Assembly: GCA_016927655.1 (NCBI GenBank)
Contig: JAFGMG010000008.1
Span: 5,929-69,928, forward strand
Reading direction: 5' to 3'
From: Candidatus Dojkabacteria bacterium
GTDB taxonomy: Bacteria > Patescibacteriota > Dojkabacteria > B142 > JAFGMG01
DNA length: 64,000 nucleotides
The position numbers were made by a program, and so were the translations under genes. Of this stretch, positions 34,781-44,127 are shown in pieces. Positions within the stretch are counted from its first letter, which is position 1; every line of letters starts with the position of its first letter. Below the pieces are notes generated by a model that searched no databases, was not told the origin of the DNA, and saw nothing but the letters and a program-made list of their open reading frames with translations.

Positions 34781-35206
34781 ATGGCAAAACCAATAAAAAC
34801 ACAAATGAAGCTGATCATTGAAGCCGGCAAAGCAACTCCTGCCCCACCAATTGGACCGGCACTTGGACAACACGGTGTAAACATCGGGGATTTTGTTAAC
34901 CAATTCAATGAGAAAACAAGAGATAAAATGGGCAACAAAATCCCAGTCATCCTGACTATTTACGATGACAGGAGTTTCTCGATGGAATTCAAACAACCGC
35001 CTGTTGCCGACTTGATTCAAAAAGCAACCGGTATCAAAAAAGGATCTGCAACACCAAATACAGAAAAAGTCGGAAAACTGAGCAAAGCCCAGGCAACAGA
35101 AATTGCCGAGGTAAAGATGCCAGACTTGAATACAAACAAGATTGAATCAGCCGTTAAGATTGTACAAGGAACTGCAAAAAGCATGGGACTTGAGGTTGAG
35201 GAATAA
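34781..35206 (+). CDS. rplK: 50S ribosomal protein L11 (uL11)
   Basis: AGKATPAPPIGPALGQHGVNI consensus. Confidence 0.9.
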   Translation: MAKPIKTQMKLIIEAGKATPAPPIGPALGQHGVNIGDFVNQFNEKTRDKMGNKIPVILTIYDDRSFSMEFKQPPVADLIQKATGIKKGSATPNTEKVGKLSKAQATEIAEVKMPDLNTNKIESAVKIVQGTAKSMGLEVEE

Positions 35207-37076: not shown

Positions 37077-37101
37077 AATGAGTTCATAAAGACACATGAA
37101 A

Positions 37102-37135
37102 AGAACCTTGCTATTGCAAGGTTCTTCCTTTAATA
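37102..37135 (+). terminator. intrinsic terminator after rplL
   Basis: Hairpin AGAACCTTGC-TATT-GCAAGGTTCT followed by a T-rich tract. Confidence 0.5.
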
Positions 37136-37166
37136 TTGAGTTTGATAAATCTTAAAATCAAAAGTC

Positions 37167-37862
37167 ATGAACGAACTTCTACCAGCCGCTTTGATTGATG
37201 AAGGGATCATTACCAGAGTCACACTCCTTATGATCATCATGCTTCCTATAGTTGGTACTGTGATCGGATTTACCAAGCATGTAATTGGTCTAAAGTCACT
37301 TGGGTTGTACGCACCAATTGTTATGACCTATGCGTATTTCCAAATTGGTTTATCAAGCGGCCATTCAAGTTGGATCGACCAGGTGTTCTACAGCTTTAAA
37401 GTCGGAATAGCATTAACCATAGTTGTTTTCCTCACCACCCTGCTTGCTCACAAGGTCACGAAACTAATGCGTCTTCATTATTCACCAAAAATTGCTTTAG
37501 TAATAAGCACAGTCGCAATCAGTATGTATCTGGTAATTATTGTTGCAAGATATTTAGATCTTGAGACATTTCTTGAAAGCAGCTTCATTCCAATCATTCT
37601 GCTTTCTACTGTTTCAGAGCAATTTGTAGTTACAATGGCCCAGAAAAATATAAAAACAGCTTTCAGCTTAACGCTGACTACAACAATCATCTCATTTTGC
37701 ACGTTTGCCCTGATCATCTACGGCCCTTTTCAGAATCTAATGATTGATTATCCTTATCTTTTGATTCTAACTTTCCCGCTCAATATTATGATTGGTAAAT
37801 TTACCGGGCTGAGACTACTTGAATATTTTAGATTCCAGAATGTTATTCCGCAAAACGAATAA
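37167..37862 (+). CDS. 7-transmembrane membrane protein (resembles the 7TM module that accompanies ATP-grasp peptide-ligase systems)
   Basis: Seven hydrophobic helices counted by eye; no soluble domain. Separated by 2 nt from the downstream ATP-grasp fusion gene. Confidence 0.55.
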   Translation: MNELLPAALIDEGIITRVTLLMIIMLPIVGTVIGFTKHVIGLKSLGLYAPIVMTYAYFQIGLSSGHSSWIDQVFYSFKVGIALTIVVFLTTLLAHKVTKLMRLHYSPKIALVISTVAISMYLVIIVARYLDLETFLESSFIPIILLSTVSEQFVVTMAQKNIKTAFSLTLTTTIISFCTFALIIYGPFQNLMIDYPYLLILTFPLNIMIGKFTGLRLLEYFRFQNVIPQNE

Positions 37863-37864
37863 AA

Positions 37865-40204
37865 ATGAGCTTTCTAAACACATTTAAAAATCGGGAAAAA
37901 ATTCTTGGGCGAAACGAGAGAAATCTCAAATATATCCGGCCCTACAATCTCACGCGCGCAAAAAAAATTGCCGATAACAAACTGCTGACAAAAGAAATTC
38001 TCGAGAAAAATGGTATACCAACGCCAAAATTAATTGGGAAAGTCGAATCTATCCAAGATCTAAAAAATTTCGATTGGGAATCCCTGCCAAACAGCTTCGT
38101 TATTAAACCAGTACAAGGGCTTGAGGGAGCCGGGATCGAAATTTTCTACAACAGGGATAAACAAGGCAGGTGGATCATGGGAGATGGCAGGAAAGTCTCC
38201 GTTGGAGACTTAAAAGCCATGGCAATTGATATTATGGACGGGAAATATTCACTCCACAACCAAAAAGACAGTGTATTTTTTGAAGAACGGGTAAAAATGC
38301 ACAAAGTTTTCAAATATTATGCCTATAAGGGAGCTCCTGATATTAGAATTCTTGTCTTCAATAATATTCCAATAATGTCTTATCTCCGGCTTCCGACAAA
38401 AGAATCCAAAGGTAAGGGGAATTTAGCTCTTGGCGCTGTTGGAGCTGCAATCGATCTTGCCAGTGGAATAACGACAACTGCTGTACTTGGGAAAGATACC
38501 ATTGTTGAGAAAATTCCCGGAACAAACTTAAATGTTGGAGGTTTAAAAATTCCATATTGGGATGAAATACTCAAAATAGCTATAAAAGCGCATCAAGTCA
38601 CCGGACTCGGCTTTGCTGCAATCGACTTTCTAATTGACCGGGATCTCGGCCCGCAGATCATTGAACTTAACGCCAGACCAGGTCTTTCAATACAAATTGC
38701 AAATAGAGATGGTCTTAGATGGAGACTCAGAAAAGCTGCAGGGCTCAAAGTTACAAGTCCACTGAAAGGAATTAGAATTGCTAAAGATCTTTTTGGAGGG
38801 CAGCTCGAGGAACAAATCGAAAAAATTTCAGGTAAATCGATTATAAGCCATATCATGCCTGTCGAGATAATCGATCCAAATCAAAAAAAGATTCCTGCTC
38901 TTGCCTTGATTGATACAAGCAGACGTACTACAACTATAAATTATAAACTCGCGCAAAAAGCGGGTATTCCAATTTCTGAAGAAAGCTTCAAAGAAACAAG
39001 CATGTCAGATATTTCTTTTAGTCTCGCCGGTAAAATTATCAATGCCGACTGCCGTGTAGTCAAAGATAAAATCCGGGGATACAATATGCTGATTGGGCGA
39101 AGAGATCTAGGCGACTTTCTAATTGACATCAGAAGAGTCGCTACCGGGAAAGAAGATCTGCAAAAAGAAGAACTTGTTTCAGTACAAGGGCTTCAAAAGC
39201 CGGAAAATATTGATAATGCACTTGCTGAAATTGCAGAACAAATCTACATAGTTAGAAATATCAGACCGACAAACGCATCTTCAGAGAAGAAAGAATTTAA
39301 CAAAAAGAAAACTTACAGTCCGCAACTTGAGTACGAGCCGGTAAATATTGATACTGATAACCTGATATACAAACTTAGCAACCTGAATCCGGATAGAAAT
39401 ACCCAGATTGGCAAACTACTATCTGAAAAGATCGACTCTTTAAGAAAAGCAATCTATCTAATCGAGGCGATTGGGGAAGATGATAAATTTCCGCAAAGAG
39501 CCGAGAACCTTTATGGCGTGCCGGATGTTAAGATTTTTACTAAGGCTGTAGAACTTATTCGAGAAACTGACGCTATCAAACCGGATGTAAGAAAAGAGAA
39601 AGTCCTGGATAAGTCAGAAGTTGAAAAAAGAATAGCAGATCATATCAAAAAAATCGGGATTGAAGCAAAAATCGAATACATCAGAAACGGCGCCGGGAAA
39701 GCCTCGATCGGGAAAAAACAAGGGATTATTTATTTAAATCCGGATTATAAATTTACCGAAACTAAATTATTAGGGACCTTGGCACACGAAATCGACATCC
39801 ATTTGGCGAGGTCCTTTTATGGCAGACAGCGACCTTATAAAATCTATAGTTATGGGACAGCTGGATACCTAGAAGTTGAGGAAGGGCTGGCCGTAAGAAA
39901 TAAAGCCGAGGTTTTAAAAAGTCAGCAGCCAATTAGAAATGCGGCTATTATGTACGTCGCAGCGTATTTAAATCACAAAAACTCCTTTAGAGAAACATAT
40001 AACTATCTCCTCAAGCTCGGCATATCAAAAACAAATGCTTACAATTTTACAATGAGAACAAAAAAAGGCATGATAGATACCTCAAAACCAGGAGCGTTTT
40101 TGAAAGATATGCTCTACTTTTCAGGTTATCTCAAAGTAAAGGATTTAAGCAAAGAGGAGATAGGAAAACTGATAAAAAGCGGAAAGACTTCTACAGTTAT
40201 TTAA
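37865..40204 (+). CDS. three-domain fusion: RimK-like ATP-grasp amidoligase + retropepsin-like (DUF785-type) domain + DUF1704/QEGLA MATCAP-like metallopeptidase
   Basis: ATP-grasp motifs FVIKPVQGLEGAGIEI, DIRILVFN and IELNARPG in the first ~310 aa. Mid-domain PALALIDTSRRT reads as a retropepsin-like D-T/S-G motif with G replaced by S. C-terminal LAHEIDIH (HExxxH) followed about 25 aa later by EEGLA. Confidence 0.65.
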   Translation: MSFLNTFKNREKILGRNERNLKYIRPYNLTRAKKIADNKLLTKEILEKNGIPTPKLIGKVESIQDLKNFDWESLPNSFVIKPVQGLEGAGIEIFYNRDKQGRWIMGDGRKVSVGDLKAMAIDIMDGKYSLHNQKDSVFFEERVKMHKVFKYYAYKGAPDIRILVFNNIPIMSYLRLPTKESKGKGNLALGAVGAAIDLASGITTTAVLGKDTIVEKIPGTNLNVGGLKIPYWDEILKIAIKAHQVTGLGFAAIDFLIDRDLGPQIIELNARPGLSIQIANRDGLRWRLRKAAGLKVTSPLKGIRIAKDLFGGQLEEQIEKISGKSIISHIMPVEIIDPNQKKIPALALIDTSRRTTTINYKLAQKAGIPISEESFKETSMSDISFSLAGKIINADCRVVKDKIRGYNMLIGRRDLGDFLIDIRRVATGKEDLQKEELVSVQGLQKPENIDNALAEIAEQIYIVRNIRPTNASSEKKEFNKKKTYSPQLEYEPVNIDTDNLIYKLSNLNPDRNTQIGKLLSEKIDSLRKAIYLIEAIGEDDKFPQRAENLYGVPDVKIFTKAVELIRETDAIKPDVRKEKVLDKSEVEKRIADHIKKIGIEAKIEYIRNGAGKASIGKKQGIIYLNPDYKFTETKLLGTLAHEIDIHLARSFYGRQRPYKIYSYGTAGYLEVEEGLAVRNKAEVLKSQQPIRNAAIMYVAAYLNHKNSFRETYNYLLKLGISKTNAYNFTMRTKKGMIDTSKPGAFLKDMLYFSGYLKVKDLSKEEIGKLIKSGKTSTVI

Positions 40205-41206
40205 TTATCTCCCCCTAAGACTGCTTTTGATCACATCCAAATGCTTCAACGCCTCGGCAACACCCGTAACGACTGCATCCAGAGGATCGTCCACAACGTG
40301 TGCAGGTACTCCGGTAGCTTTGGTGAAAAGCTCATCAATATCACTAAATAGTGCAGTTCCGCCGCTTAATACCATTCCCCTATCAATAATGTCAGAAGTA
40401 AGCTCCGGCGGAGTCTCTTCCAAGACAGTTTTTATTGCACCAATGATTTGATTTAGAACAGGCTTAACAGCGTCATTAAGCTCATTTGAATTTATCATTA
40501 AAGTAACAGGCATACCATTTGCAACACTTCTACCACGAACTTCCATTTCCTTGGGATTGTCATGAAAAACTGCAGAACCAATTTCAATTTTCATTTTCTC
40601 TGCCATCTGTTCCCCAATTACCAGACCTTTTATCTTCCTCATATAATTTACAATTGCTTCATTTAGAGCATCGCCCGCTATTCGTTTGGATTCATAATTG
40701 ACAATTCCATTCATAGAAATTACTGCAACCTCAGTAGTACCCCCGCCCATATTCACAATCATATTTCCAGTGCTGGTACTAATTGGAAGCTCCGCGCCAA
40801 TAGCGGCGGCAATCGGCTCAGGAATAAGATATATTTTCCCGGCTCCTGCTGCTGCTGCTGCCTCAATTACAGCTCTTTCCTCGACAGAAGTAAGACCTGC
40901 TGGAACACTTATCATAACTTCCGGCTTTACAAAGCGGCTCCTGCCGATTGCCTTATTAAGCAGCGCTTTTAACAGAGCTTCAGTCAGACGGTAACTTGCA
41001 ATCACTCCCTGCCTTAGGGGTCTTCTTGCAACAATGTTCCCAGGGACTTTACCAAGCATTTCCTTCGCTTCATTGCCGACAGCAAGAACCTTTCGATCGT
41101 CCAGGGACACTGCCACAACACTTGGTTCTCGTACAACAACCCCCTGCCCTTGCAGAAAGACTAAGGAATTCGCTGTTCCAAGATCAATTGCAACTTTTTT
41201 TGCCAT
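40205..41206 (-). CDS. second actin-like MreB paralog
   Basis: IDLGTANS...EPSVVA...EPIAAAIGA...NMGGGTTE. Confidence 0.8.
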   Translation of the reverse strand: MAKKVAIDLGTANSLVFLQGQGVVVREPSVVAVSLDDRKVLAVGNEAKEMLGKVPGNIVARRPLRQGVIASYRLTEALLKALLNKAIGRSRFVKPEVMISVPAGLTSVEERAVIEAAAAAGAGKIYLIPEPIAAAIGAELPISTSTGNMIVNMGGGTTEVAVISMNGIVNYESKRIAGDALNEAIVNYMRKIKGLVIGEQMAEKMKIEIGSAVFHDNPKEMEVRGRSVANGMPVTLMINSNELNDAVKPVLNQIIGAIKTVLEETPPELTSDIIDRGMVLSGGTALFSDIDELFTKATGVPAHVVDDPLDAVVTGVAEALKHLDVIKSSLRGR

Positions 41207-41257: not shown

Positions 41258-42730
41258 ATGAAAAAAAGACTTCAAAAAATTATACAGGCATTCTTTATTC
41301 TCTTTGTAATTGCAGCTTTTGGCTGTATTACCGCTGTTACCCTTATTATAGCACAGGGGGGGAAAATTACACCCACCGGAATTACCCAGACGGGAATTTT
41401 GAGGATTAATTCCGAGCCGGCCGATGGGATTAAAGTCTTCATAGATGGAGAACGAGTTTCTCTAGTAGATAAAAGGGTTGAAGGGCTCGAAGAAGGCGAC
41501 TATACTTTGCGGATTGAAAAAGAAGGATACCTGCCCTGGGAAAAACGAGTCAGTGTTGATAACGGCATAGTGAAAGAAATTTATGCTTCTCTTCTCAAAG
41601 AAGATCTAGAACTCAAACAGCTGACAAATACAAATATTGACAGGGTATTTTTCTCTCCTGATGGAAGTTATGCTTATTATGTAATTACCAAATCAGATAC
41701 ACCCTCTGAAAATGGAATATGGAGATTGAAACTAACTCAAAATACTCTCGAGTCAATCGGCCTTGTCAAGACACAATCAGAAAGGATCTCAGAGATCACG
41801 AAAGCCATTGCCGGCATTTTGCAAGGAGAATATGTCATAGATATCGCTCCAAATAATTCAAAAATTATATTACGGAATGAGAATAGCAGCCTATTTTTCA
41901 TCTACTACATCGATCAAGCTCAACTTGTCGATATCAAAACACCAACAAGTCTTGGATTTACTCCTGAGAAATATTTCTGGTTCAAGAATGGCGATTCATT
42001 GATTGCTCAATCCGGCAATTCGGTTTATGAGTTAAATCTAGGTTCAAACCAAATTACACTTGTTTATAATTTCCAGGGGGTTGATCCAATTTTTGCAGTA
42101 AATGGCAGGAATATAATAATCTATGCAAACGACCAATACTACAGCTACGAAAATGAGTCCAGGAGCTTACTTGGCCAAAAATTCACACTCCCTGCCCCGG
42201 ATCAACTCTGGCTGAGCCAAGAATCGGACGACTTACTTTTTATCAAATCTACTGGTGTTCTTTATTTTGCAAATCTTAAAAAAGAAATAGTAGAAATTGG
42301 AGAATATGAGATTGTAGATATTTCTAACGATGGTCAGAATGCAATTTTAAGAAATACTGGCGGAGCTCTTTACAGTTTCAGGGGCGAACTAATTGTGGCA
42401 ACAGACAAAATAAGCACCAGTACTAAACTGATTCAAGAGAACTACGATTCAAAATCCCAAATATACAAATTTTCTCCGGACAGCAACTATCTTCTTGAAC
42501 GAGTTCTATACAACGGACAAAGCATATTCAAGCTAATCGGGCTTTACGGTGAAAACACATATGATCTACTTATAACGTCGAAACACGTTGGCGCCAACAA
42601 CTTTGGCTTGGTAAACGGTTCGAGAGAATTTCTGATCTTGCTAAAAGATACTACCTCGGCAGCTGATACTGGGACCACTCAAAGCACTGCTGTTGAAGCG
42701 AATTTGTACAAAATCGAGCTAGTGGATTAG
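41258..42730 (+). CDS. membrane-anchored PEGA-domain protein with C-terminal beta-rich region
   Basis: N-terminal TM, then PEGA-like segment (LRINSEPADGIKVFIDGERV...GDYTLRIEKEGYLPWEKRVSV). Confidence 0.55.
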   Translation: MKKRLQKIIQAFFILFVIAAFGCITAVTLIIAQGGKITPTGITQTGILRINSEPADGIKVFIDGERVSLVDKRVEGLEEGDYTLRIEKEGYLPWEKRVSVDNGIVKEIYASLLKEDLELKQLTNTNIDRVFFSPDGSYAYYVITKSDTPSENGIWRLKLTQNTLESIGLVKTQSERISEITKAIAGILQGEYVIDIAPNNSKIILRNENSSLFFIYYIDQAQLVDIKTPTSLGFTPEKYFWFKNGDSLIAQSGNSVYELNLGSNQITLVYNFQGVDPIFAVNGRNIIIYANDQYYSYENESRSLLGQKFTLPAPDQLWLSQESDDLLFIKSTGVLYFANLKKEIVEIGEYEIVDISNDGQNAILRNTGGALYSFRGELIVATDKISTSTKLIQENYDSKSQIYKFSPDSNYLLERVLYNGQSIFKLIGLYGENTYDLLITSKHVGANNFGLVNGSREFLILLKDTTSAADTGTTQSTAVEANLYKIELVD

Positions 42731-42877: not shown

Positions 42878-43486
42878 TTAAACTTGAACCTTTCCATAAT
42901 ACCCCATCGGCTTATGAACGTTTACCGGATAATCCATGAGTTCTGTATCTGAGAACCAAAGTTCAATTTCTTCTTTGGCCTCATCAACTGAACCAGAGGC
43001 ATGTACAAGATTATAAAACGGTCTCATTTGTTCGTTGGCAAGATCGGCATTGTCCCAGCTATAATCTCCTCTAATAGTACCCGGAGCAGCCTTGACTGGA
43101 TTTGTCTCCCCTACCAGTTTACGCCCGATACTTACCGCTTCCGGTCCTTCAAAAACCATCGCTAGAACTGGTCCCATCGAGAGATACTCGACAAGCCAGC
43201 CTTTAACAAGTCCCCCAATTTCTTCCGGCACATCAGTCCCCAGTCTTTCCACTGGATCAATTCCTTTTTCTTTGTATTCAGCAAGCGTTCTCCCCCCAAC
43301 CTTTTCCTTCCATTCCTTACTATCAGGGTAATGTTTTTCACTCATATCATCAGTAGCAGCGATAAATTCCAGGGCTACCATTTTCAAACCCACTCTTTCA
43401 AATCTGGAAATTATTTCCCCCATCAAGCCCCTTGCAACACCATCGTGTTTAATTATTATCAGTGTTTTTTCTTTAGTTTTATCCAT
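42878..43486 (-). CDS. ndk: nucleoside diphosphate kinase-like protein (extended, ~35-aa insertion)
   Basis: IIKHDGVARGL...SMGPVLAMVFEG...GTIRGDY...NLVHASGS (catalytic His retained). Confidence 0.7.
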   Translation of the reverse strand: MDKTKEKTLIIIKHDGVARGLMGEIISRFERVGLKMVALEFIAATDDMSEKHYPDSKEWKEKVGGRTLAEYKEKGIDPVERLGTDVPEEIGGLVKGWLVEYLSMGPVLAMVFEGPEAVSIGRKLVGETNPVKAAPGTIRGDYSWDNADLANEQMRPFYNLVHASGSVDEAKEEIELWFSDTELMDYPVNVHKPMGYYGKVQV

Positions 43487-43503: not shown

Positions 43504-44127
43504 TTATTTTTCCAGATCAAGCATTCCAATATAATCGACCTTTTCATAATCACTCAAATCTTCGAATTTATCCCCAAACCAATGTGTGATTTCTCTTTTT
43601 GCTTCTTCCTTAGAATCAGAAATATGCACTAAAGTCTGAAATACGATTCTTCCGGATTTGACTGCTAACTGAGGAGTATCATACCCCCAATTGCCTCTAA
43701 TAGTGCCGACATCTGCAGTTGTTGGATCTGTTGCCCCCGCGAGCTTTCGAACGATTTTCACCGCCTCGTTCCCTTCCCAGACAGAGATAATCACTGGCCC
43801 GGATGATAAATATCTTACTAGTCCGTCATAAATTCTCTGCCCAATTTCTTTTTTGTCAGTCGTGCCCATTTCATCCATTATTCTTTTCTCATCGCCGCTG
43901 TAATTTGCCCAGGTTTTCTCTCCCATGCCAATCAGCCACTCATCAGTGCCTGGATAATTTCCCCTGGCCTGCTCTTCTGTCGCCTGAATCATCCTTGCTG
44001 CAACAAGTTTCAACCCAGCATCTTCAAGCTTTTTCCAAGCTCTGCCGATCAATCCTCGTTTCACCCCATCGGGCTTGATCATCATAAAAGTCTGCTCAAT
44101 ACTTGGGAAATTTTCCTTTGCTTTCAT
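43504..44127 (-). CDS. ndk: nucleoside diphosphate kinase-like protein, tandem paralog (extended)
   Basis: MMIKPDGVKRGL...SSGPVIISVWEG...GTIRGNW...TLVHISDS; same insertion position as its neighbour. Confidence 0.7.
   Translation of the reverse strand: MKAKENFPSIEQTFMMIKPDGVKRGLIGRAWKKLEDAGLKLVAARMIQATEEQARGNYPGTDEWLIGMGEKTWANYSGDEKRIMDEMGTTDKKEIGQRIYDGLVRYLSSGPVIISVWEGNEAVKIVRKLAGATDPTTADVGTIRGNWGYDTPQLAVKSGRIVFQTLVHISDSKEEAKREITHWFGDKFEDLSDYEKVDYIGMLDLEK

Follow-up and report, generated by a model that had tools for sequence, protein, structure and literature searches.

A conserved two-gene module of Dojkabacteria couples a 7TM membrane protein to a fused ATP-grasp ligase and MATCAP-type carboxypeptidase: a candidate membrane-docked writer/eraser system

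The stretch of DNA analysed here (the window) comprises 64,000 nt of contig JAFGMG010000008.1 from Candidatus Dojkabacteria bacterium, and all coordinates count from its start. Our subject is a module of two adjoining open reading frames (ORFs), which lie where an earlier note on this DNA, made from the letters alone, had placed them: 37167..37862 (+), encoding a seven-transmembrane (7TM) protein of 231 aa, and 37865..40204 (+), a single uninterrupted ORF encoding a three-domain enzyme of 779 aa, with 2 nt between the stop codon of the first and the ATG of the second. The motif strings quoted in that note (FVIKPVQGLEGAG, ELNARPG, ALALIDTS, HEIDIH and EEGLA) were all found when their coordinates were checked. 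The larger ORF is not an artefact: its architecture recurs in 75 of the best 80 genome loci as well as in metagenome loci (the genome-locus counts here and below cover the best 80 of 228 relatives), and an identical protein is held in NCBI nr as [quoted passage not shown] Because the 779-aa protein has no hydrophobic segment, signal peptide or transmembrane (TM) segment, it would be cytoplasmic; its AlphaFold model has a mean predicted local distance difference test (pLDDT) score of 89.7.

The N-terminal domain (aa 1–312; 37865..38800, +) is an ATP-grasp amino-acid ligase domain of the RimK/RloC-like (ATPgrasp_ST) kind. It matches ATPgrasp_ST (PF14397) over aa 19–290 with an E-value of 2.7e-59 and 201 bits, far above the cut-off of 31.4, and the top folds retrieved for it from the PDB by Foldseek are RimK, LysX and ArgX, with TM-scores of 0.52–0.59. 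Across 60 homologues K81, D254 and E267 are invariant and N269 and R271 at least 90% conserved; the ELNARPG motif lies at 38663–38683 (+). The RimK-like assignment made earlier is thus borne out by profile, by fold and by the conservation of the ATP/Mg2+-binding residues. The domain also matches TIGR02291, “alpha-L-glutamate ligase-like” (E 7e-75), with a score of 251.9 against a hypothetical-equivalog cut-off of 314.2, so that the window ligase is a member of the family and not an equivalog of the proteobacterial protein. Its match to the TTL family in Pfam (E 0.03) is confined to the ExN motif. RimK, LysX and ArgX all act on a C-terminal glutamate of a protein: RimK extends the C-terminal Glu-Glu of S6, and for LysX and ArgX the target is the C-terminal Glu of LysW.

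At the other end of the enzyme (aa 450–779; 39212..40201, +) lies a zinc carboxypeptidase domain of the MATCAP/QEGLA type. MATCAP (PF08014) is matched over aa 478–766 with an E-value of 5.5e-35 and 121 bits against a cut-off of 27, and TIGR02421 (QEGLA) with an E-value of 1.5e-36 and a score of 126.5, which does not reach the equivalog cut-off of 338.65. In a phmmer comparison with the PDB, HEIDIH (aa 641–646; 39785–39802, +) is aligned with HEIGTH, and EEGLA (aa 672–676; 39878–39892, +) with EEGLA, of human MATCAP (7z5g). Foldseek places the domain, whose pLDDT is mostly above 90, on the MATCAP structures 7z5g and 7z6s with an E-value of 4e-9 and a target TM-score of 0.61–0.62 over about 325 columns. 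Residues H641, E642, H646, E673, G674 and A676 are invariant in 43/43 three-domain proteins, and HExxxH and xEG[LMI][AS] both occur in 75/75 three-domain genome loci. The QEGLA/DUF1704 identity with an HExxxH...E site, as first noticed from the sequence, is therefore upheld by a profile match above cut-off and by the alignment of both motifs with human MATCAP. More generally, the profile searches and structure prediction that the earlier note had named as checks gave strong ATP-grasp and MATCAP matches and recovered both folds, with HExxxH...E intact. The carboxypeptidases of the MATCAP family act on acidic tubulin tails, taking off single residues (PMC10499314).

The middle domain (aa 323–425; 38831..39139, +) is a reduced RimB/RloA-like retropepsin domain. 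Pfam gives a marginal Asp_protease_2 match (E 0.07) and no PF05618 match. The profile of the window clade nevertheless aligns by hhalign with that of the canonical RimB-like domain of two-domain relatives, which lack MATCAP, with a probability of 99.6% (E 2e-24), and this canonical profile matches the RloA crystal structures 9G58/9G59 at 1e-10; judged by profile comparison, then, the middle domain is homologous to the RimB/RloA retropepsins (PF05618 family). The catalytic D-T/S-G-A motif was not found in it: the window has D350-T-S-R (DTS at 38912–38920, +), the DR motif is gone, and so is a segment of about 45 residues, the S..G...RP segment that aligns with the RloA flap region (mapped onto the published RloA flap coordinates only approximately). 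The motif D[TS]G is kept in 60/60 two-domain but in 13/98 three-domain proteins, and in many of the latter the Asp is replaced by N, E, Q, A or S. What is retained is IGR[RK]DL (IGRRDL at 39092–39109, +, in the window), whose G411 and L415 are invariant in 60 homologues, and, strongly conserved within Dojkabacteria, L[IV]DTSRRT; this retention suggests a remaining structural or binding role. The DUF785/RimB-type identity proposed earlier thus stands as homology, while the catalytic motif and the flap have been lost, and the domain is probably a non-catalytic remnant. With DTS in place of DTG, the flap deleted and the Asp often lost, the enzyme has two conserved catalytic modules, not three, and the simplest reading is that a MATCAP exopeptidase took over the job of a retropepsin endopeptidase.

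The smaller gene (37167..37862, +) encodes an RloB-like 7TM protein that consists of a 7TM_transglut core and has no extracellular domain. It matches 7TM_transglut (PF14402) with an E-value of 3.8e-18 and 66 bits against a cut-off of 25. The NCBIfam RloB model (NF052267) is matched only through its 7TM part, model positions 302–506 of 508, with 37.5 bits against a cut-off of 900 and hence below equivalog level; the N-terminal extracytoplasmic inactive transglutaminase domain of full-length RloB was not found in the 231-aa protein. Its AlphaFold model (pLDDT 82, predicted TM-score 0.79) has seven TM helices and so agrees with the PF14402 match on the standalone 7TM partner that had been noticed just upstream of the enzyme, and a positive-inside analysis of its charges gives the orientation N-out/C-in. 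A Foldseek search with this fold returned no significant solved relative, transporters included (best E 0.48), with weak similarity to small ion-translocating membrane subunits. The cytoplasmic C-terminal segment (37806..37859, +) is composed of an amphipathic helix, GLRLLEYFRF, and a disordered tail ending in ...PQNE, of which the terminal Glu codon occupies 37857–37859; in the model, helix 217–223 is followed by a tail of low pLDDT. Among the close relatives of this protein (only 13, from the 7TM homolog search), G214, L215, R216, E219, Y220 and F223 are invariant.

The fusion joins modules that, according to the earlier note, normally occur as separate proteins. It is nevertheless not rare, being widespread in Patescibacteria and already present at NCBI as a DUF1704 protein, and the search proposed then, for the same fusion and 7TM partner in other genomes of the Candidate Phyla Radiation, finds both. 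We found 228 relatives with a MATCAP domain in species-representative genomes, and a metagenome scan yielded at least 585 further relatives of both architectures. Most of the 75 genome loci with the three-domain fusion carry the labels Peregrinibacteria, Peribacteria, Gracilibacteria or Saccharibacteria; Woesebacteria and Parcubacteria contribute one locus each, and a few come from metagenome-assembled genomes (MAGs) that were probably mis-binned. In 64 of the 75 the gene immediately 5′ of the fusion, in the same orientation, encodes a 7TM protein, most of the others being cut by contig ends, and a 7TM homologue stands directly 5′ of the ligase gene in every examined locus that has upstream sequence; altogether, about 100 related loci in Patescibacteria genomes and in metagenomes have the fusion together with its upstream 7TM gene. 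Literature searches on the DUF1704/MATCAP/QEGLA and ATP-grasp families, which did not cover Iyer et al. 2009, the likely first comparative-genomics description of these families, found no paper describing the fusion. The Patescibacteria system is thus real, conserved and present in databases and, to our knowledge, undescribed in the literature.

A further finding concerns the C-terminus of the 7TM partner. In a survey of 160 non-identical loci, the tail ends in -EE, -EEE or -EEEE in 68/85 loci that bear MATCAP and in 0/54 that lack it; for any terminal Glu the counts are 69/85 and 1/54 (Fisher p ~1e-22, with kinship ignored), the window being the extra single-E case among the MATCAP-bearing loci. 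A neighbour-joining tree of the ATP-grasp domain has three three-domain clusters, and EE tails are present in each. Partners with PKD domains are found in both classes, and the tail therefore tracks MATCAP; the PKD partner as the cause of -EE tails is rejected, because the PKD partners of two-domain systems have non-acidic tails. A Shine–Dalgarno origin, with the Glu codons serving translation of the downstream gene, is ruled out by codon usage (terminal Glu codons are GAA 99 to GAG 39, against 2759 to 1113 gene-wide) and by spacing, as the gaps from the 7TM stop to the downstream start range from −29 to 221 nt and two-domain systems are equally spaced without EE tails. Nor do all RloB-type proteins end in EE, since neither of the two proteobacterial RloB proteins (0/2; Legionella, Aeromonas) has an acidic tail. 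Taken with the tail chemistry of RimK, LysX/ArgX and MATCAP, the association of -EE with MATCAP leads us to propose the cytoplasmic tail of the 7TM protein as an acceptor or docking ligand of the enzyme.

Two sets of three-domain loci carry other tails. A “Saccharibacteria”-labelled subclade (L020, L030, L050 and L045) keeps DTG in the fused retropepsin and has 7TM tails ending in ...KHGKSS or ...KHDKSA, not in -EE; here a second, stand-alone MATCAP-like paralogue follows the three-domain gene (L020 4705–6018, −; L030 7140–8612, −; L050 7737–9200, −; L045 7947–9671, +). Inside the large EE-tailed clade, the three-domain loci L094, L123 and L129 have short 7TM partners (about 255 aa) whose tails are basic, and their retropepsin motif reads NT[TAS]R; both the PKD domain and the EE tail seem to have been lost secondarily here.

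The closest characterized system, unnamed in the earlier note, is rloABC of Pseudomonas aeruginosa, which consists of the secreted retropepsin RloA, the inactive-transglutaminase-7TM protein RloB and the ATP-grasp protein RloC (Lormand et al., mBio 2025, PMC12239564). RloA cleaves runs of at least eight Glu, and in a triple rloA mutant the hypo-osmotic, biofilm and shape defects are suppressed once rloB or rloC is lost as well (PMC12239564), which indicates antagonism between the ligase/7TM pair and the peptidase. Genuine rloABC operons, in which RloA has a signal peptide, are also present in Legionella and Aeromonas, and their ligases are 36–38% identical to that of the window. The window module shares with rloABC an ATPgrasp_ST/TIGR02291-like ligase, a 7TM_transglut partner directly upstream and a retropepsin module of the RimB/RloA family. 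It differs in that its retropepsin is fused to the ligase, and hence cytoplasmic, where RloA is secreted and stand-alone; in that this retropepsin is degenerate (DTS, no flap) and a MATCAP domain is added; in the absence of the inactive transglutaminase domain from the 7TM protein, where other Patescibacteria have PKD domains; and in its scores below the NCBIfam equivalog cut-offs for RloB and TIGR02291.

That the ligase and the 7TM protein work as one unit is suggested by plasmid CP007061.1 of Halobacterium sp. DL1 (L173, 4164–5915), where an intact ORF of about 584 aa carries both 7TM_transglut (aa 51–243) and ATPgrasp_ST (aa 286–557). As an archaeal Rosetta-stone fusion it argues for a physical complex, with the ligase on the cytoplasmic, C-terminal side of the 7TM module. 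This ORF is without a feature in the PLSDB gene table.

With RimK–RimB the module shares an ATP-grasp ligase and a retropepsin-type peptidase, both cytoplasmic, as well as the acceptor logic of a C-terminal Glu-Glu on a protein, and RimK is among its top structural matches; RimK, however, has no membrane partner and no MATCAP, RimB is separate and active, and for the window module there is no evidence of S6 or another ribosomal target. The tubulin tyrosination cycle (TTL with MATCAP/TMCP or VASH) likewise pairs a ligase of ATP-grasp fold with an HExxxH...E carboxypeptidase of the MATCAP family, and the associated protein of most bacterial three-domain systems ends in -EE, like detyrosinated alpha-tubulin, whose -EEY tail is trimmed by MATCAP. 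In the window, by contrast, the ligase is RimK-like rather than TTL-like, writer and eraser share one polypeptide, and the putative substrate is a 7TM membrane protein. A further comparison is with the two-domain proteins of Patescibacteria (about 470 aa, ATPgrasp_ST plus canonical RimB-like PF05618), whose ligase is 50–66% identical and which have the 7TM partner and, in Dojkabacteria, the same position after rplL as the window module; they differ in having no MATCAP, in keeping DTGA and the flap (60/60) and in the basic or neutral tails of their 7TM proteins.

MATCAP and an ATP-grasp ligase have been partnered independently in Proteobacteria. In 4/6 annotated proteobacterial plasmid loci we find an operon of N-formylglutamate amidohydrolase (FGase), QEGLA and GshB-type ATP-grasp genes; at L175, L177, L178 and L179, on alpha- and beta-proteobacterial plasmids, these are annotated as N-formylglutamate amidohydrolase, a QEGLA protein of about 630 aa and a “glutathione synthase”-type ATP-grasp protein, and the three-gene operon looks like a distinct ligase/peptidase system under misleading names. 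The proteobacterial QEGLA proteins consist of an FGase-like N-terminal domain, absent from the window protein, and a MATCAP domain. In Photobacterium damselae, low salinity induces a QEGLA gene 27-fold and the neighbouring “GshB” gene 38-fold (PMC10308900). The likeness to our module lies in the genetic coupling of a MATCAP-family peptidase to an ATP-grasp ligase; the differences are the glutathione-synthetase-like clade of the ligase, the lack of a 7TM partner and the separate genes. The “7TM + alpha-L-glutamate-ligase-like/QEGLA operon” invoked in the earlier note merges two proteobacterial systems, one in which the 7TM protein pairs with a TIGR02291 ligase and a retropepsin, and one in which QEGLA pairs with FGase and a GshB-type ligase. 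Seen against both, the Patescibacteria fusion is a variant of the Rlo or RimK–RimB kind that combines a ligase and 7TM protein of the Rlo type with a peptidase of the QEGLA type.

We consider it about an even chance that the two genes form a membrane-docked writer/eraser module, a Patescibacteria variant of the Rlo or RimK–RimB type, and from the above we infer its chemistry of glutamate addition and removal, its acceptor and its physiological role as follows. The cytoplasmic 779-aa enzyme would dock on the 231-aa 7TM core. Its RimK/RloC-like ATP-grasp domain would couple amino acids, with glutamate the likeliest, to a C-terminal carboxylate at the expense of ATP, and the MATCAP-type domain would remove residues from the same end, the length or state of the tail being set by the balance of ligase and carboxypeptidase. 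The retropepsin-like domain between them, a presumed remnant of the endopeptidase of MATCAP-less relatives, would most likely act in dimerisation or as a scaffold. In MATCAP-bearing systems the likeliest acceptor, or at least docking ligand, would be the Glu-terminated cytoplasmic tail of the 7TM partner, and the physiological role may be envelope or osmotic homeostasis, as for rloABC. The pairing of a ligase with a matching peptidase at the membrane, as earlier surmised, holds and gains from the invariant 7TM adjacency, the Halobacterium fusion and the independent pairing in Proteobacteria; the reversible C-terminal tagging cycle that had been built on it is made more specific by the -EE tails, which fall short of proof.

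Several observations weigh against this proposal. The tail association is dominated by one large clade, with kinship ignored in the statistic, and tails in the window's own clade, where the -EE rule is weak, are variable (QNE, NQE, KQD, EQD, DKE, NKK, LQN, TEE, MEE, ITK, SEK): of the 13 closest relatives, nine have E or D as the last residue and the others K, N or Q, and conservation of the tail is poor at the sequence level. The ligase domain is 50–60% identical to that of two-domain systems with basic 7TM tails, so it cannot generally need an acidic tail, and the 7TM C-terminus is not free in the Halobacterium fusion; both facts point to a conserved core function that is independent of the acidic tail. 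The activity of the ATPgrasp_ST/RloC enzymes is itself a prediction, and so are the added amino acid and the acceptor. The peptidase of Pseudomonas is periplasmic, which indicates an exported product and not a cytoplasmic tail. Finally, the conservation of L[IV]DTSRRT means that the middle domain may keep some function, even activity.

The neighbourhood of the module bears on two of the alternatives. In Dojkabacteria the gene order is rplA-rplJ-rplL, 7TM, fusion, mreB on the opposite strand and a PEGA-domain gene, and it holds down to 42% identity; a two-domain Dojkabacteria representative also lies directly after rplL, with different downstream genes. In the window, mreB occupies 40205–41206 (−) and is followed by a 490-aa gene (41258–42730, +) whose homologues carry a PEGA domain. 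This flank is present in all eight three-domain Dojkabacteria loci examined, window included, with one or two extra genes between fusion and mreB in L165 and L169. Outside Dojkabacteria the neighbourhood differs, and the 7TM protein has N-terminal PKD domains. Between rplL and the module lie a terminator-like hairpin (37101..37126, +; 11-bp stem with 5 GC pairs) and a promoter-like site (37130–37158, TTAATA-17-TAAAAT); both are consensus matches only, and they suggest at least partial insulation of the module from the ribosomal-protein genes that precede it.

The product could instead be a free alpha-linked peptide, for instance poly-alpha-glutamate, made by the ligase and exported by the 7TM protein, with the fused peptidase controlling its length or recycling it. 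RimK also makes free poly-alpha-Glu, and the Pseudomonas peptidase RloA is secreted, its authors seeing free polyE as a possible substrate (PMC12239564). The non-acidic tails of two-domain systems and of RloB imply, moreover, a core function that needs no tail acceptor, and the weak likeness of the 7TM fold to small ion-translocating membrane subunits fits export. Yet both fused peptidase domains are cytoplasmic, on the side of synthesis, where they would serve no purpose if the product is exported; the 7TM fold matches no transporter significantly (best Foldseek E 0.48); and a free polymer leaves the restriction of -EE tails to MATCAP systems unexplained. We regard this explanation as a serious one, though on balance rather unlikely. 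A different membrane-bound acceptor is also conceivable, namely the carboxylate of an envelope precursor (peptidoglycan, teichoic-acid-like or glycan) that is aminoacylated at the membrane and trimmed by MATCAP, with a link to cell shape. The Pfam name of the ligase family, “sugar-transfer associated,” points this way, as do the cell-shape, beta-lactam and hypo-osmotic phenotypes of rlo mutants (PMC12239564), the constant position of the module beside mreB and the PEGA-domain gene in Dojkabacteria, and the continuation of locus L003 with a DegT aminotransferase and four more ATP-grasp genes. But mreB lies on the opposite strand and the gene order does not extend beyond Dojkabacteria, the module of the window contains no glycosyltransferase or Mur gene, and the nearest structural relatives of the ligase act on protein C-termini, which makes an envelope acceptor improbable.

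The weakest rival, and in our judgement a very improbable one, supposes that the tail of a ribosomal protein is modified in the manner of RimK and S6, for example that of L11 from the adjacent secE-nusG-rplKAJL cluster. Apart from the RimK precedent, it draws on the place of the module immediately 3′ of rplL in every Dojkabacteria locus examined and on the L11 of the window (34781–35206, +), which ends in ...LEVEE. The L11 proteins of relatives, however, end in EVID or EVTD (a two-domain locus among them), and L7/L12 always ends in VELK, so that the -EE in the window is probably a generic acidic L11 terminus. The hairpin and promoter-like site separate the module from rplL, the synteny is absent outside Dojkabacteria, and a ribosomal target fits poorly with the obligatory membrane partner.

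Returning to the membrane-docked writer/eraser, its sharpest form would be a C-terminal tail code, in which the fused ligase and MATCAP domains add and remove one or more residues on the genome-encoded -EE of their own 7TM partner and thereby switch its state. Such a code would be a prokaryotic counterpart, and possibly an evolutionary source, of the TTL–MATCAP cycle. We offer it tentatively, as an idea that is on balance rather unlikely; if true, it would name the first candidate substrate for Rlo-like systems. Ligase–peptidase systems of the RimK/RimB and Rlo types affect stress tolerance, antibiotic sensitivity and cell shape, and the variant described here joins writer and eraser in one chain, replaces one type of peptidase by another and comes with a specific candidate acceptor. 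MATCAP, familiar from tubulin, is repeatedly paired with bacterial ATP-grasp ligases, which bears on the origin of the eukaryotic tubulin-tail enzymes. The retention of the module in the tiny genomes of Patescibacteria, and its fixed position between rplL and mreB in Dojkabacteria, argue for an important function.

Some related loci are more extended. At L003 (8361–14376) the module is followed by a DegT aminotransferase, four more ATP-grasp/RimK-like genes and a DUF3541 gene, and L169 (4994–6937) has two RimK-like genes; these may be larger clusters for peptide or amino-sugar modification. In MAGs with the labels Methanosarcinales and Woesearchaeota, MATCAP genes of about 355 aa stand alone (L006 1036–2535 and L009 5974–7488): they have no ATP-grasp neighbour, and each is followed by an Ssb-like gene with an oligonucleotide/oligosaccharide-binding (OB) fold. 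Further downstream in the window, at 42878–43486 (−) and 43504–44127 (−), lie tandem nucleoside-diphosphate-kinase-like genes, an unusual duplication for a reduced genome that is also present in L001. The GC skew of the window is strongly negative over most of its length and positive only at about 34–40 kb, where the genes, including those of the module, are on the + strand, a pattern consistent with a strand-of-transcription effect.

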